A program made the translations under genes and the position numbers. A stretch of 64,000 nucleotides of DNA, from the NCBI GenBank assembly GCA_964482335.1, contig CAYZXA010000001.1, forward strand, positions 24,983 to 88,982, written 5' to 3'. This DNA comes from an uncultured Candidatus Saccharibacteria bacterium (lineage in GTDB: Bacteria > Patescibacteriota > Minisyncoccia > Minisyncoccales > MHMH01). The notes under the pieces are model-generated. The model ran no database searches. It was not told the DNA's origin and worked only from the letters and a program-made list of their open reading frames with translations. Positions 59,482 to 62,472 of the stretch are shown here, in pieces; position 1 is the first letter of the stretch; each line of letters opens with the position of its first letter.

Positions 59482-60060
59482 ATGATTCTTTCTGATAAAG
59501 ACATTAAGAAACATATTGCTGAAGGCAAGATAAAGATTAATCCAGAACCGAATTTTGATGAACAGTTAGGTCCTTGCTCTTTAGATTTACACTTAGGCAA
59601 CATCTTTAAAGTTTTCAAACCTTCTCAATATCCTTATTTAGACTTAAAGAGGAACGTCCATTTTGAGGAATTGATGGAGGAGGTAAGAATAGAAGATGGT
59701 GCTCCATTTATTTTACAGCCCAAAGATTTTATTTTAGCTACGACCAAAGAAGAGTTTATTTTACCCGACAATATAATGGCCAGACTCGATGGCAGGTCTT
59801 CCTTAGGCAGATTAGGCATTGTTGTTCATTCAACCGCTGCCAGATTTGATCCAGGATGGCAGGGCAACGCAGTTATGGAACTTGGCAATTTAGGCATTAT
59901 GCCCGTTGTTTTGTATTCTGGCATGCGTATTTGCGCTTTAACCTTTGAAACGCTTTCTAGCCCCTGCGACATTACTTATTTAAAAAAGAAAGGTCAGAAA
60001 TATGGAAAACAGACATCTCCGCGAGCCAGTAAAATTACTGAAGAATTTAACAAGCAATAA
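59482..60060 (+). CDS. dcd: dCTP deaminase (possibly the bifunctional dCTP deaminase/dUTPase type)
   Basis: MILSDKDI, GPCSLDLHLG, RLDGRSSLGRLG and NAVMELGN motifs. Confidence 0.88.
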   Translation: MILSDKDIKKHIAEGKIKINPEPNFDEQLGPCSLDLHLGNIFKVFKPSQYPYLDLKRNVHFEELMEEVRIEDGAPFILQPKDFILATTKEEFILPDNIMARLDGRSSLGRLGIVVHSTAARFDPGWQGNAVMELGNLGIMPVVLYSGMRICALTFETLSSPCDITYLKKKGQKYGKQTSPRASKITEEFNKQ

Positions 60061-60062
60061 TT

Positions 60063-60917
60063 ATGGAGGATTTAAAGAGTTGGCCTTCGATTGAAGGAAG
60101 ATATAAAAAGGGAAATCCACAATCTCCGGTGGCTATTTGTACCAATGCCACGGTTGAAGGAATTGAACCTGATATGGAAAAAGTAGCTTTGATCGGCAAA
60201 TGTGTTACTGAAAATATTGGTATTGAGAAAATCATCCAGAACATTGTTGCTAATCCATACATCAGGTTTTTGATTTTTTGTGGCAAAGTCTCCAAGGGGC
60301 ATTTTGTCAGCCAAGCTTTCCTTTCTTTAAAAAAAAACGGTATAGATAAAGAGAAAAGAATTATTGGGGCTCGGGGGAACACCCCTTTTTTGAAAGGGAT
60401 TGATGAAGCATTAATAGAAAGGTTTCGTCAACAGGTTGAGATGGTTGATTTAATGCCAGAACAAGATAGGGAGAAAATAATGAAAAAAGTAGACGATTGC
60501 TTAAGGCGAAATCCCGGTCCTTTTTCTGGAGAACCTGTTAAGGTTCAGGAAGTTGAAACAATCCAGGCTAAGTCTTGTCCTGACTGGATTGCTGACCCCA
60601 AAGGATTTTTTGTTATTTCCATAGACCGTAACCTAAACAAGATAATCGTTGAGCATTTTCAGAATAATAAACTTACCAAAAAGATAATTGGTAATTCAGC
60701 TGAAGAAATTTCAAAAACTATCAGCTACCTTGATTTGATTGGCGATTTTGAACAGACAAAAGAACATACCATGTATTTAGCCAGAGAACTTCAAAAAGCA
60801 GAATTTGCCTTGAAAAATAATTTAGATTATGAGCAAGATAGTGAGTTACAAATAAAAAAGGTCAAACAAGAAGATAAACAAAAAAAATCAGCCAATGAAG
60901 ATGATTGGTTCGATTAA
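60063..60917 (+). CDS. MtrA-like (tetrahydromethanopterin S-methyltransferase subunit A family) N-domain fused to a DUF4346-like C-domain
   Basis: WP..G.Y..GNP.SPVA, C.TENIGIEK, NP.IRFLIFCG...GH and G..PFL......ERFR.Q all parallel archaeal MtrA, including the His that ligates the corrinoid in MtrA. Confidence 0.6.
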   Translation: MEDLKSWPSIEGRYKKGNPQSPVAICTNATVEGIEPDMEKVALIGKCVTENIGIEKIIQNIVANPYIRFLIFCGKVSKGHFVSQAFLSLKKNGIDKEKRIIGARGNTPFLKGIDEALIERFRQQVEMVDLMPEQDREKIMKKVDDCLRRNPGPFSGEPVKVQEVETIQAKSCPDWIADPKGFFVISIDRNLNKIIVEHFQNNKLTKKIIGNSAEEISKTISYLDLIGDFEQTKEHTMYLARELQKAEFALKNNLDYEQDSELQIKKVKQEDKQKKSANEDDWFD

Positions 60918-60923
60918 AAAACT

Positions 60924-61700
60924 ATGTACGAAACAAAAATCGTTGAAGCTAAAACTTTAGGGGAGGCATGGGAAAAATCCTGTATTTTAATGATGCAGGA
61001 AGGTCATACTCGTTATGTCCAAGCACCTGAATATCAGATAGAGACAAAGGACCTTCCCTTGTTGATTAAAGTCGCAGATCCTTTTTCTGAACCAAGATTG
61101 AGCGATAAAGTCAATACAACAAAAGGATTAGCGGATGAATACACTAAGAAATTCTTACATGGTTCGGGTAAAGAGAACGAGAACAGTTTTGATTATACCT
61201 ATTTTTCTCGTTTGCGCTGCTACCCTGATTGTAAGGTCAGGGCCTGGCTGCCAAGCGTTACTGAGACTGATGAAGAATTGGCCGAAGAAGTTAAAAAAAT
61301 CTCTCCTGACGGCAAATGCGTTGTTCAGCGCATCGACCAGGTGGAGAAAGCCATCAATATCCTTAAAAAGGATCCAACCCGCCGCACAGTGGTTATGCAT
61401 ACCTGGGTGCCCTTCCGAGACTTAATGAAATTCGGGCCAAAGAGAGGAGACACTTCTTCGCCTTGCGTGCTTTTATTTTATCCTCAGTTGGTTGATGAGA
61501 AGCTCCATATGTTTGTCGTTATGAAGACCAATGATTTGTACAACGCTTGGCCAGAAAACGCTTATGCTTTCAGTGCTTTGCAAAAATACATGGCAGATGA
61601 GCTGAGAGTGGGGACTGGTACCTATACTCATTTTTCTGTCAGTATGCATATTTACAAAGATATGTACAATGAGGTCAAGAAAAAGTTCAATTTGCAATAG
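60924..61700 (+). CDS. thyA: divergent (archaeal-type) thymidylate synthase ThyA homolog
   Basis: The catalytic Cys context SPCVLLFYPQ aligns with PPCHxxxQF. MKTNDLYNAWPENAYAFSAL aligns with QRSxDxxLGxPFNIASYALL. Confidence 0.65.
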   Translation: MYETKIVEAKTLGEAWEKSCILMMQEGHTRYVQAPEYQIETKDLPLLIKVADPFSEPRLSDKVNTTKGLADEYTKKFLHGSGKENENSFDYTYFSRLRCYPDCKVRAWLPSVTETDEELAEEVKKISPDGKCVVQRIDQVEKAINILKKDPTRRTVVMHTWVPFRDLMKFGPKRGDTSSPCVLLFYPQLVDEKLHMFVVMKTNDLYNAWPENAYAFSALQKYMADELRVGTGTYTHFSVSMHIYKDMYNEVKKKFNLQ

Positions 61701-61719
61701 AGAAGATTAGTTAGATGCT

Positions 61720-61751
61720 AGGCTTCTGAGAAGCGGAAGCCTTTTTCTTTT
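61720..61751 (+). terminator. intrinsic terminator
   Basis: AGGCTTC / GAAGCCT stem followed by TTTTTCTTTT. Confidence 0.65.
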
Positions 61752-61779
61752 GAGGTAAATTTGTTAAAATTAAGGAAGT

Positions 61780-62472
61780 ATGGAAATTGCTAAAGTTATT
61801 GACCAGACCTTTCTGAAAAAGGGAGCGGCGGATGAAAAGATAAAGGAACTTTGCCAAGAGACCAGAGAATACGGCTTTCGGGGTTTTTGCATTTTTCCAG
61901 AACATACGAAGTTGGCTAAAAAATGCCTTAAGGGCAGTGGCGTTAAAGTGACCACTTTGATAGATGAGCCAACTGGTCAGAGTTCTTCTAAAAAGAGAAT
62001 TAAGATGGTTAAGAAAGCTAAAAAAGCAGGGAGCGATGAAGTTGACGTAGTTATGAAGATAGATGATTTTAAAAACGGCAAATATGAAGAAGTTTTAAAG
62101 GATTTGAAAGCTATTTGTTCTATTCTGCCAACAAAAGTCATAATTGGCTCAGGATACTTGACTGACGAAGAGATTAAGAAGGCTTCTCAAATTGTTAAAA
62201 CTGCGGGCGCTATCTGTGTTAAAACAGCTACCATCAGTGATCCTTTGGACCATTCAGAGTTAGACGAGAAAGCAAAACATGTCAGGATTATGAAAGAATC
62301 TGCTCCTGGCTTGCTGGTTAAAGCGGCTGGCAATGTTAGGAAAATAGCTGATTTAAGAATAATGACGGAGGCTGGAGCTAATATCATTGGTACAAGTTCT
62401 GGCGTTGAAATTGTTAATGAAGCTCAAGGTATTCAAACCGAAACTAAAAAAGACGATAGAATAATTGAGTAA
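61780..62472 (+). CDS. deoC: deoxyribose-phosphate aldolase
   Basis: IDQTFLK, DEVDVVM and CVKTAT (Schiff-base Lys context) match the DeoC pattern. Confidence 0.8.
   Translation: MEIAKVIDQTFLKKGAADEKIKELCQETREYGFRGFCIFPEHTKLAKKCLKGSGVKVTTLIDEPTGQSSSKKRIKMVKKAKKAGSDEVDVVMKIDDFKNGKYEEVLKDLKAICSILPTKVIIGSGYLTDEEIKKASQIVKTAGAICVKTATISDPLDHSELDEKAKHVRIMKESAPGLLVKAAGNVRKIADLRIMTEAGANIIGTSSGVEIVNEAQGIQTETKKDDRIIE

Follow-up and report, generated by a model that had tools for sequence, protein, structure and literature searches.

A conserved MtrA-like/DUF4346 partner of a divergent ThyA-fold enzyme suggests a possible corrinoid-dependent route to thymidylate in Patescibacteria and archaea

Introduction

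From which donor does a thymidylate synthase homolog receive its one-carbon unit when its gene directly follows that of a relative of a methanogen corrinoid protein? The question is raised by a locus on contig CAYZXA010000001.1 of an uncultured Candidatus Saccharibacteria bacterium (assembly GCA_964482335.1), of which we have analysed a stretch of 64,000 nucleotides (positions 24,983 to 88,982 of the forward strand; hereafter the window). At this locus dcd, a gene for a protein with an MtrA-like domain followed by DUF4346, and a divergent thyA-like gene lie in a row. We infer that they form a module leading from deoxycytidine triphosphate (dCTP) to deoxythymidine monophosphate (dTMP), in which the ThyA-fold enzyme is the obligate partner of a cytoplasmic MtrA-like/DUF4346 corrinoid protein. 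The mechanism that we propose, with a probability of about 0.5, is a corrinoid methyl relay that would run from a methyl-pterin to Co(I) on the MtrA domain and from there to deoxyuridine monophosphate (dUMP), the ThyA-fold enzyme acting as the final methyltransferase.

Thymidylate synthesis is an essential process and one of the classic targets of drugs. To our knowledge, only two classes of thymidylate synthase exist, ThyA and ThyX. Classical ThyA takes both the carbon and the hydride from methylene-tetrahydrofolate (methylene-H4folate) and needs dihydrofolate reductase, and ThyX works with flavin and NADPH. Cofactor and mechanism of archaeal ThyA have stayed an open matter over some 30 years (PMC9931769, PMC9012536). 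The putative corrinoid partner described here, conserved and often fused, is a concrete candidate for the answer to the cofactor question.

Organization of the locus

The features of the locus are listed below in window coordinates.

59446..59474, + strand: promoter-like site, TTGAAA-17 nt-TATTAT, 8 nt 5' of the dcd start codon (consensus scan)
59482..60060, + strand: dcd, dCTP deaminase, 192 aa (TIGR02274, PF22769)
60063..60557, + strand: MtrA-like, putatively corrinoid-binding domain, residues 1-165 of a 284-aa protein (PF04208)
60585..60848, + strand: DUF4346 (PterinBD-DUF4346) domain (PF14251)
60849..60917, + strand: predicted disordered C-terminal tail with conserved W-F-D, then the stop codon (pLDDT, homolog alignment)
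60924..61700, + strand: ThyA-fold enzyme, 258 aa, putative dUMP C5-methylase (PF00303, TIGR03283)
61720..61752, + strand: terminator-like hairpin and T-run, end of the three-gene operon (sequence scan)
61780..62472, + strand: deoC, deoxyribose-phosphate aldolase (TIGR00126)

An earlier reading of the window's sequence (the initial annotation) had placed four open reading frames (ORFs) here, and an ORF check found all of them on the + strand at these coordinates. It had also joined the four into one pyrimidine deoxynucleotide block. The promoter-like site, to be read as a consensus match, agrees with 10 of the 12 consensus positions. The intergenic gaps are 2 nt between dcd and the MtrA-DUF4346 gene and 6 nt between the latter and the thyA-like gene, and the hairpin proper (61720-61742) has a stem of 9 bp with 5 GC pairs and is followed by the T-run. 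Because of the promoter-like site, these short spacings and the hairpin with its T-run, the conserved unit is a three-gene operon (dcd, MtrA-DUF4346, thyA-like), and deoC is a transcription unit of its own. From the proposed block the first three genes and the terminator were therefore retained, whereas deoC lies past the terminator and is a variable though frequent neighbour, found downstream in 23 of the 47 loci of the window's type (Type I, see below). The MtrA/DUF4346 and thyA-like ORFs share a reading frame, with TAA and two codons between them (window 60915-60926), and the loss of one stop codon would yield an MtrA-DUF4346-ThyA fusion such as those found in archaea.

Both outer gene products pass curated models. 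The product of dcd scores 194.5 bits with TIGR02274 (equivalog cutoff 92.8) and 155.8 bits with PF22769; it would supply dUTP, or dUMP if it is bifunctional. That of deoC scores 154.2 bits with TIGR00126 (equivalog cutoff 117.3).

Conserved linkage and gene fusions

The linkage was followed in a genome scan, which gave 14 loci, and in a metagenome scan seeded with ThyA-like motifs alone, which gave 80 loci; neighbouring genes were identified with our own hidden Markov models (HMMs). The nearest named homologs belong to Candidatus Nealsonbacteria and other Parcubacteria, which, together with two upstream genes shared with locus L006 (see below), assigns the window to a bacterium of the Patescibacteria. 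In related Patescibacteria genomes, the order dcd, MtrA/DUF4346, thyA-like is kept in 9/9 loci with enough flank. DUF4346 lies directly upstream of the ThyA-like gene in 70 of the 72 metagenome loci having at least 400 nt of upstream sequence. Where at least 1200 nt were available, DUF4346 was present in 61/62 loci and MtrA in 58/62, three of the MtrA misses being at contig ends. The sole real exception is L090 (5980-6756), the one ThyA-like locus that has flanks of the full 6 kb and yet no MtrA, DUF4346, MtrH or DCD nearby. Co-occurrence of MtrA-like/DUF4346 with thyA had been chosen beforehand as the test that could refute a partnership, and its outcome is strongly positive. The loci fall into the following arrangements.

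Type I: DCD, MtrA-DUF4346, ThyA; 47 loci, the window's type included
Type II: MtrA, MtrH, DUF4346, ThyA; 16 loci
Type III: MtrA-DUF4346, ThyA; 15 loci
Fusion type: MtrA/DUF4346 fused with ThyA; 3 loci

The linkage is present in bacteria of the candidate phyla radiation (CPR) and in DPANN-like archaea, and it is still kept where the identity of the ThyA-like protein has dropped to 56% (retrieved loci) or about 25% (fusion proteins). A homolog search with the ThyA-like profile returned the same close set and recovered no methanogen sequences.

Moreover, at least five fusion architectures were found by a representative search and Pfam scans.

MtrA-DUF4346-ThyA: P0254, P0293, P0368
MtrA-ThyA-DUF4346: P0307, P0333
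MtrA-ThyA: P0383
DCD-MtrA-DUF4346: P0064, P0241 and others; 9/47 Type I loci
MtrA-MtrH: L018, L069, L072

The fusions to ThyA are single ORFs that recur in independent assemblies and have archaeal neighbours. Fusion at the other end is seen as well: dcd stands 5' of MtrA/DUF4346 in 47 loci, and in 9 of those 47 both make up a single ORF. With TIGR03283, the model of methanogen-type thymidylate synthase, which we take to be the MJ0757 type, the fused ThyA domain reaches 200.9 bits in P0333 and 219.2 bits in P0383, in both cases above the cutoff of 174.55, so the partnership reaches the canonical methanogen-type family, beyond the sister clade to which the window protein appears to belong. In L020 a dUTPase-like gene, a triple fusion, a thymidylate kinase gene and a dCTP deaminase gene follow one another and make up a full path from dCTP to deoxythymidine diphosphate. 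According to the initial annotation, ThyA may have in the MtrA-like/DUF4346 protein a dedicated partner that handles the one-carbon unit; the near-universal adjacency among the 80 loci, the occurrence in two domains of life and the fusions all support this idea.

The MtrA-like/DUF4346 protein

The MtrA domain (residues 5-164 of the 284-aa protein) scores 167.7 bits with PF04208 against a gathering score of 25, and the DUF4346 domain (residues 178-259) 71.2 bits with PF14251 against 29.6, which confirms the initial reading of the gene between dcd and thyA as an MtrA homolog fused to DUF4346. The domain has the Rossmann-like fold of the solved MtrA structures and shares about 50% identity with them. 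In MtrA, His84 is the cobalt ligand and Glu54 its hydrogen-bond partner, and bacterial MtrA homologues of unknown function have been noted (Wagner 2016, PMC4915002). Among 66 homologs of the window protein, the corresponding His80 is invariant and Glu50 (Glu54) is kept in at least 90%; across all loci the cobalt-ligand His is kept in 86 of 93. In the meander, the window protein reads GNTPFLKG against the consensus GAIPF-[YF]-x-EN, with the G, P and F retained and the EN pair gone. The domain would bind a corrinoid, and since His80 and Glu50 are conserved and MtrH, methylenetetrahydrofolate reductase (MTHFR) and core MetE occur in related clusters (see below), the protein is more likely to carry methyl groups on a corrinoid than to present a pterin.

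With TIGR01111, which describes MtrA of the Mtr complex, the protein scores 158.5 bits, below the equivalog cutoff of 249.15. It is cytoplasmic, without a transmembrane segment or membrane anchor, its C-terminus being DUF4346, and no mtr operon genes lie in the vicinity of its gene in the window. On these three grounds (score, anchor, operon) it is, as judged by sequence, not a true Mtr subunit.

DUF4346 is predicted to fold into three strands and two helices and carries the motif D-x-x-G-F-F...VEHY...H-x-x-Y-L-x-x-E-L-x-K-A-E. No relative of it was found among solved structures, and in the literature searched there was no mention of DUF4346 or PF14251, a family without assigned function. The tail (residues 267-284, window 60861-60914) has a predicted local distance difference test (pLDDT) score below 50 and is predicted to be disordered; at least 90% of the 66 homologs share its W282 and D284. 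This Trp-Phe-Asp tail looks like a short docking peptide, and in the MtrA-DUF4346-ThyA fusions it sits at the linker position.

Distant MtrA-DUF4346 proteins (37% identity) with an N-terminal extension of about 40-60 residues were also found in Alphaproteobacteria, Lutibacter, Balneolales and Gillisia (L011-L014), where neither thyA nor dcd is nearby. Phe stands in place of the cobalt-ligand His, and Pro or Ala in place of Glu50, in L012-L014, and in L012 the gene comes after that of a TonB-dependent receptor. These proteins may differ in function from the ThyA-linked clade. In another MtrA-DUF4346 homolog, P0249 (466 aa), the MtrA domain is apparently split by an intein-like segment, for which Intein_splicing gives 24.3 bits, below the Pfam cutoff of 35.8.

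The divergent ThyA-like protein

PF00303, the third Pfam family considered in the initial annotation, is above threshold like the two families of the partner protein, with 50 bits against a gathering score of 24.3, the match being limited to residues 133-255, the C-terminal half. The best-scoring curated model is TIGR03283 with 126.9 bits, and TIGR03284 gives 33.4 bits against a cutoff of 108.35. Because the TIGR03283 score stays below the equivalog cutoff of 174.55, the protein appears to represent a sister clade of the methanogen-type thymidylate synthase; the methanogen-type resemblance noted initially holds in that this model is the best of the curated ones, and full membership does not follow from it. 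The AlphaFold2 model (pLDDT 82) gives Foldseek template modelling (TM) scores of about 0.65 to ThyA structures, which indicates a ThyA fold.

With hhalign, only residues 135-250 could be aligned, to residues 107-215 of E. coli ThyA. Within this part the protein keeps Cys181 (E. coli Cys146), Arg153/154 (Arg126/127), Asp204 (Asp169), Asn212 (Asn177) and Tyr244 (Tyr209), Thr202 takes the position of Ser167, and Lys201 replaces Arg166. Apart from this Arg166 to Lys201 exchange, the catalytic Cys and the dUMP site are those of a ThyA; Tyr93 is conserved too, and candidate residues for proton abstraction are retained. Asn212 is found in 106 of 107 sequences and Asp204 in 105. The same alignment bears out the motif deviations quoted in the initial annotation, namely PCV for PCH, MKTND for QRSCD and WPEN for LPFN.

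The Trp80/Trp83 folate-binding segment has no counterpart that hhalign could align, and by eye no Trp-bearing match to residues 66-88 could be made out. The protein stops 14 residues past Tyr244, which would leave no room for the classical long C-terminal lid. In addition, the clade has a specific insertion of roughly 35-45 residues (residues 99-134, window 61218-61325) with conserved Cys and His positions: Cys99 (His in 17 sequences), Cys103 and Cys132 are conserved, and so is His236 elsewhere in the protein. The insertion, which has low pLDDT and in which the P0254 fusion has both Cys99 and Cys103 replaced, may form a metal site or serve in docking.

A viral contig of 175 kb from IMG/VR (L106, 5989-6741) carries a gene for a short ThyA of the archaeal type, distant at 27% identity and with an RSND motif; inside 6 kb of it, neither MtrA nor DUF4346 was found.

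Fuller gene clusters in relatives

The gene clusters of relatives are richer in one-carbon and nucleotide genes than the window. L015 comprises NrdJ, MtrA/DUF4346, ThyA-like, a hydrolase of the haloacid dehalogenase (HAD) family, a deoxyribosyltransferase-thymidylate kinase fusion, thymidine kinase and serine hydroxymethyltransferase (SHMT). L018 holds SHMT, an MtrA-MtrH fusion, DUF4346, ThyA-like and DCD, and in the archaeal L019 SHMT is divergent from MtrA, MtrH, DUF4346, ThyA-like and DCD. SHMT neighbours the module in 11 of the 16 Type II loci as well as in L015, and MtrH is present in 16 related loci. In L015 the ribonucleotide reductase (RNR) adjoining the module is NrdJ, the B12-dependent type, which points to cobamide use in these lineages. 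Genes for thymidylate kinase (a frequent neighbour), dCTP deaminase and dUTPase-like proteins flank the module or are fused to it.

A route at the methyl level needs a methylene-pterin reductase, so that MTHFR was to be expected, and it was then found. In L095, MTHFR (PF02219, 84.7 bits) lies beside SHMT (NF000586, 385 bits, above cutoff), followed by MtrA, an MtrH-family gene, DUF4346 and ThyA-like. The same MTHFR occurs in 7 Type II (archaeal) loci; among those with several kb 5' of SHMT, L019 alone is without it. L072 has a core MetE gene (NF002119, 275 bits, cutoff 258) flanked on one side by the MtrA-MtrH fusion and on the other by DUF4346, and ThyA-like and DCD follow downstream. In vitro, core MetE enzymes work with methylcobalamin; for the reaction in vivo, MtrA was predicted as the donor (Price et al. 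2021, PMC7857596). In view of this prediction, of the core MetE gene in L072 and of the clusters with MTHFR, SHMT and MtrH, the MtrA module looks like an anabolic methyl-corrinoid donor, with the ThyA-like protein as its constant and often fused partner. The carrier of the one-carbon unit is probably folate-like rather than methanopterin, since the cluster enzymes are of the folate type: a MetF-like MTHFR, an SHMT of bacterial type and a relative of MtrH that is similar to MtgA as well.

A gene for a dihydroorotate-dehydrogenase-like flavoprotein was seen near the module in two archaeal loci, L019 (1592-2719, - strand) and L022 (5707-6615, + strand); its product could be an ordinary PyrD or a substitute reductase.

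A possible corrinoid methyl relay

The relay that we propose would be built like that of MetH or of the methanogen methyltransferase systems, with Dcd feeding deoxyuridine nucleotide into the module. It would take place in six steps; 1- SHMT would make methylene-pterin from serine, 2- MTHFR would reduce it to methyl-pterin, 3- an MtrH-family methyltransferase would methylate Co(I) on the MtrA domain, 4- Cys181 of the ThyA-like enzyme would add to C6 of dUMP, 5- C5 of the activated dUMP would attack methyl-Co(III) and 6- proton abstraction and elimination would free dTMP and Co(I). DUF4346 may serve as an adaptor that docks the corrinoid domain both to the ThyA-like enzyme and to the pterin-binding barrel. 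As the pterin would leave in its tetrahydro form and not oxidised, no dihydrofolate reductase would be needed. Seen as an MT1/corrinoid protein/MT2 system, the MtrA-like domain has the features of the corrinoid carrier; the fusions and the adjacency point to the ThyA-like enzyme as the methyl acceptor enzyme (MT2 role) and to this direction of methyl flow, with an MtrH-type loader presumably encoded elsewhere in the genome. The separate parts of such a chemistry have precedents. The pyrimidine C5 methyltransferases that depend on S-adenosylmethionine (SAM) methylate a Cys-activated C5 directly from their methyl donor, and TsrM performs polar C-methylation from methylcobalamin.

Several observations weigh against such a relay. 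No MtrH or SHMT match lies within the 64-kb window; no MTHFR match turned up there either, the search directed at MTHFR having covered the fetched loci only, and no MtrH, MTHFR or SHMT was found within 6-8 kb of any Type I or of most Type III loci. Asp204, the equivalent of the pterin-contacting Asp169 of classical ThyA, is all but invariant, so a pterin site may survive, and a neighbouring SHMT gene is just as compatible with a classical methylene donor. Near the clusters there was no sign of a corrinoid reductive activase. In one fusion lineage of the MtrA-ThyA-DUF4346 order (P0307, P0392 and L022, 8001-9434), His80 is replaced by Phe and Glu50 by Pro; there the corrinoid would be bound without a protein ligand, or binding has been lost. 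Furthermore, the counts of linked loci overstate independence because many loci come from related organisms; the diversity of gene orders and the occurrence in two domains of life are not inflated in this way. Finally, we know of no characterised carbon-transferring enzyme of the ThyA family that uses anything other than methylene-tetrahydrofolate.

Two other corrinoid chemistries were considered and rejected. Were Co(I) the two-electron reductant of an exocyclic methylene intermediate, it would need low-potential re-reduction in each turnover, no reductase is clustered with the module, and MtrH and MTHFR would be left unexplained. For a reverse flow, from methyl-corrinoid to methylene-folate for a classical ThyA, no methyltransferase for methyl substrates is present, and a fusion of MtrA to ThyA would make no sense.

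Alternative explanations

Could the enzyme be a classical ThyA after all? It would then be a reductive methylase acting on methylene-H4folate or a methanopterin-like carrier and releasing the dihydro form. The part of the MtrA/DUF4346 protein would be an accessory one, whether in holding, presenting or channelling the pterin or in stabilising the enzyme, and dTMP would be formed without any corrinoid chemistry. We regard this as rather unlikely. It agrees with the fold and with the conserved catalytic and dUMP-binding residues, Asp204 included, with the frequent SHMT neighbour as maker of the methylene donor and with the fusion of DUF4346 also to a pterin-binding dihydropteroate-synthase-like protein (TIGR00284 match); moreover, methylene-tetrahydromethanopterin (methylene-H4MPT) is assumed in the literature for methanogen ThyA (PMC9723798). 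Yet such an enzyme would give no role to the conserved cobalt-ligand His/Glu pair, nor to MtrH and MTHFR in the archaeal clusters. In about 100 loci, no match to dihydrofolate reductase was obtained (phmmer with E. coli FolA, a weak search), and the part of the protein that can be aligned with the E. coli enzyme leaves out the Trp80/Trp83 segment and the C-terminal lid. A different function for the MtrA-like domain, in which it would sense, store or chaperone B12 and so couple thymidylate synthesis to cobamide supply (for example with a B12-dependent RNR) and carry no methyl group, is improbable. NrdJ immediately upstream of the module in L015, the TonB-dependent receptor adjoining distant Bacteroidota MtrA-DUF4346 homologs and the loss of the His ligand in some lineages are what it would explain; MtrH, MTHFR and core MetE in the clusters are what it leaves unexplained. 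The near-obligate adjacency, besides, is to the ThyA-like gene and not to RNR, and a search of the window and of L011-L014 for a cobalamin riboswitch gave nothing.

The initial annotation had also considered that the pair might make a modified pyrimidine nucleotide, 5-hydroxymethyl-dUMP or another C5 derivative, instead of dTMP. Among the best structural matches (5jnh, 5b6d, 9iqc, 9iqu) are ThyA-fold hydroxymethylases as well as a hydroxylase that depends on flavin, and the protein scores under the cutoffs of both curated thymidylate synthase models. This product is nevertheless not favoured and appears highly improbable, as the uracil-type Asn212 is present in nearly every sequence and thymidylate kinase is a frequent neighbour along with the dCTP deaminase and dUTPase-like genes that flank or are fused to the module. 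Also, no ThyX motif was found in the window, the family is kept as a single-copy, housekeeping-like gene in reduced genomes, and two of its fused relatives pass the cutoff for methanogen-type ThyA. That unrelated one-carbon and nucleotide genes merely stayed side by side in one lineage by inherited synteny, without any link in function, is scarcely credible: many retrieved loci do belong to related Parcubacteria with similar gene order, but the linkage holds across bacteria and archaea, in four gene orders and at the low identities given above, and mere synteny is contradicted by protein fusions in at least three domain orders, which were seen in independent assemblies.

Comparison with known systems

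The window protein shares with the methanogen-type ThyA (TIGR03283) its short length, the ThyA fold and the conserved catalytic Cys, Arg pair, Asp and Asn; it differs in its score under the cutoff and in the clade-specific Cys/His insertion. The cofactor of the methanogen-type enzymes is biochemically unresolved (PMC9012536, PMC9931769), and the partnership may extend to that family, given that the relatives passing the model (P0333 and P0383) are fused to MtrA. Classical ThyA and ThyX would share substrate (dUMP) and product (dTMP) with the window enzyme, and ThyA also its fold and the addition of Cys at C6. Unlike them, the window module has a putative corrinoid partner, often fused in relatives, Lys in place of Arg166, and no alignable folate segment or lid.

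Compared with MtrA and MtrH of the Mtr complex and with the cytoplasmic MtrA homologues of known structure (PDB 5laa, 5l8x, 8q3v), the partner protein has DUF4346 at its C-terminus and no membrane anchor; there are no mtrB-G genes, coenzyme M chemistry or sodium pumping here, and the organisms do not belong to the methanogens. What MtrAH does outside that group has been described as unclear (PMC9635834). MetH and core MetE (MesA) come close in having a methyl-pterin-binding barrel, a corrinoid carrier and an acceptor-activating enzyme, and L072 holds both core MetE and the ThyA-like gene; here, however, the methyl group would go to C5 of dUMP, a carbon nucleophile bound by a ThyA fold, and not to a zinc-activated thiol. 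No carbon-nucleophile ThyA-fold acceptor of methyl-corrinoid is described in the literature searched. The top structural matches (TM 0.65-0.78) include AfhB (PDB 9iqc, 9iqu), which has a similarly compact ThyA fold and differs in its dCMP substrate, its FAD cofactor and its reaction, a hydroxylation; identity is 17-18%. As AfhB is flavin-dependent, the ThyA fold can change its cofactor. We found no cobalamin-dependent thymidylate synthase, nor any ThyA linked to MtrA, DUF4346 or a corrinoid protein, in the literature searched. The components are of known kinds, and their combination, with the B12-dependent route to dTMP that it implies, is undescribed in that literature.

Possible implications

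If the relay operates as proposed, it would represent a third class of thymidylate synthesis, and it would account for dTMP synthesis without dihydrofolate reductase in reduced-genome symbionts. DUF4346 would gain a function, as would MtrA and MtrH outside the methanogens (PMC9635834), and the presence of MtrA/MtrH would be a weaker sign of ancestral methanogenesis (PMC13473441) than it might seem. Perhaps the B12-dependent chemistry goes beyond these organisms; very tentatively, since we hold it to be doubtful, we suggest that this third, ThyA-fold class is a general route for the archaeal methanogen-type ThyA, that the donor in methanogens would be cytoplasmic MtrA homologues or the Mtr complex, and that MtrA and MtrH of DPANN and CPR organisms would be genes of thymidylate or methionine synthesis rather than remnants of methanogenesis.

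Other features of the window

Just 5' of the operon (window 58663-59414) lie a DUF5674 gene and an unannotated ORF of 113 aa, and both are found in the same place in the Nealsonbacteria locus L006, with 85-88% identity. Further upstream, a group I catalytic intron was identified on the + strand (48803-49005; Rfam RF00028, 91.8 bits against a gathering score of 50). It lies 5' of an ORF of 244 aa (49098-49829) and of tRNA-Met and tRNA-Asp genes (49795-49969).

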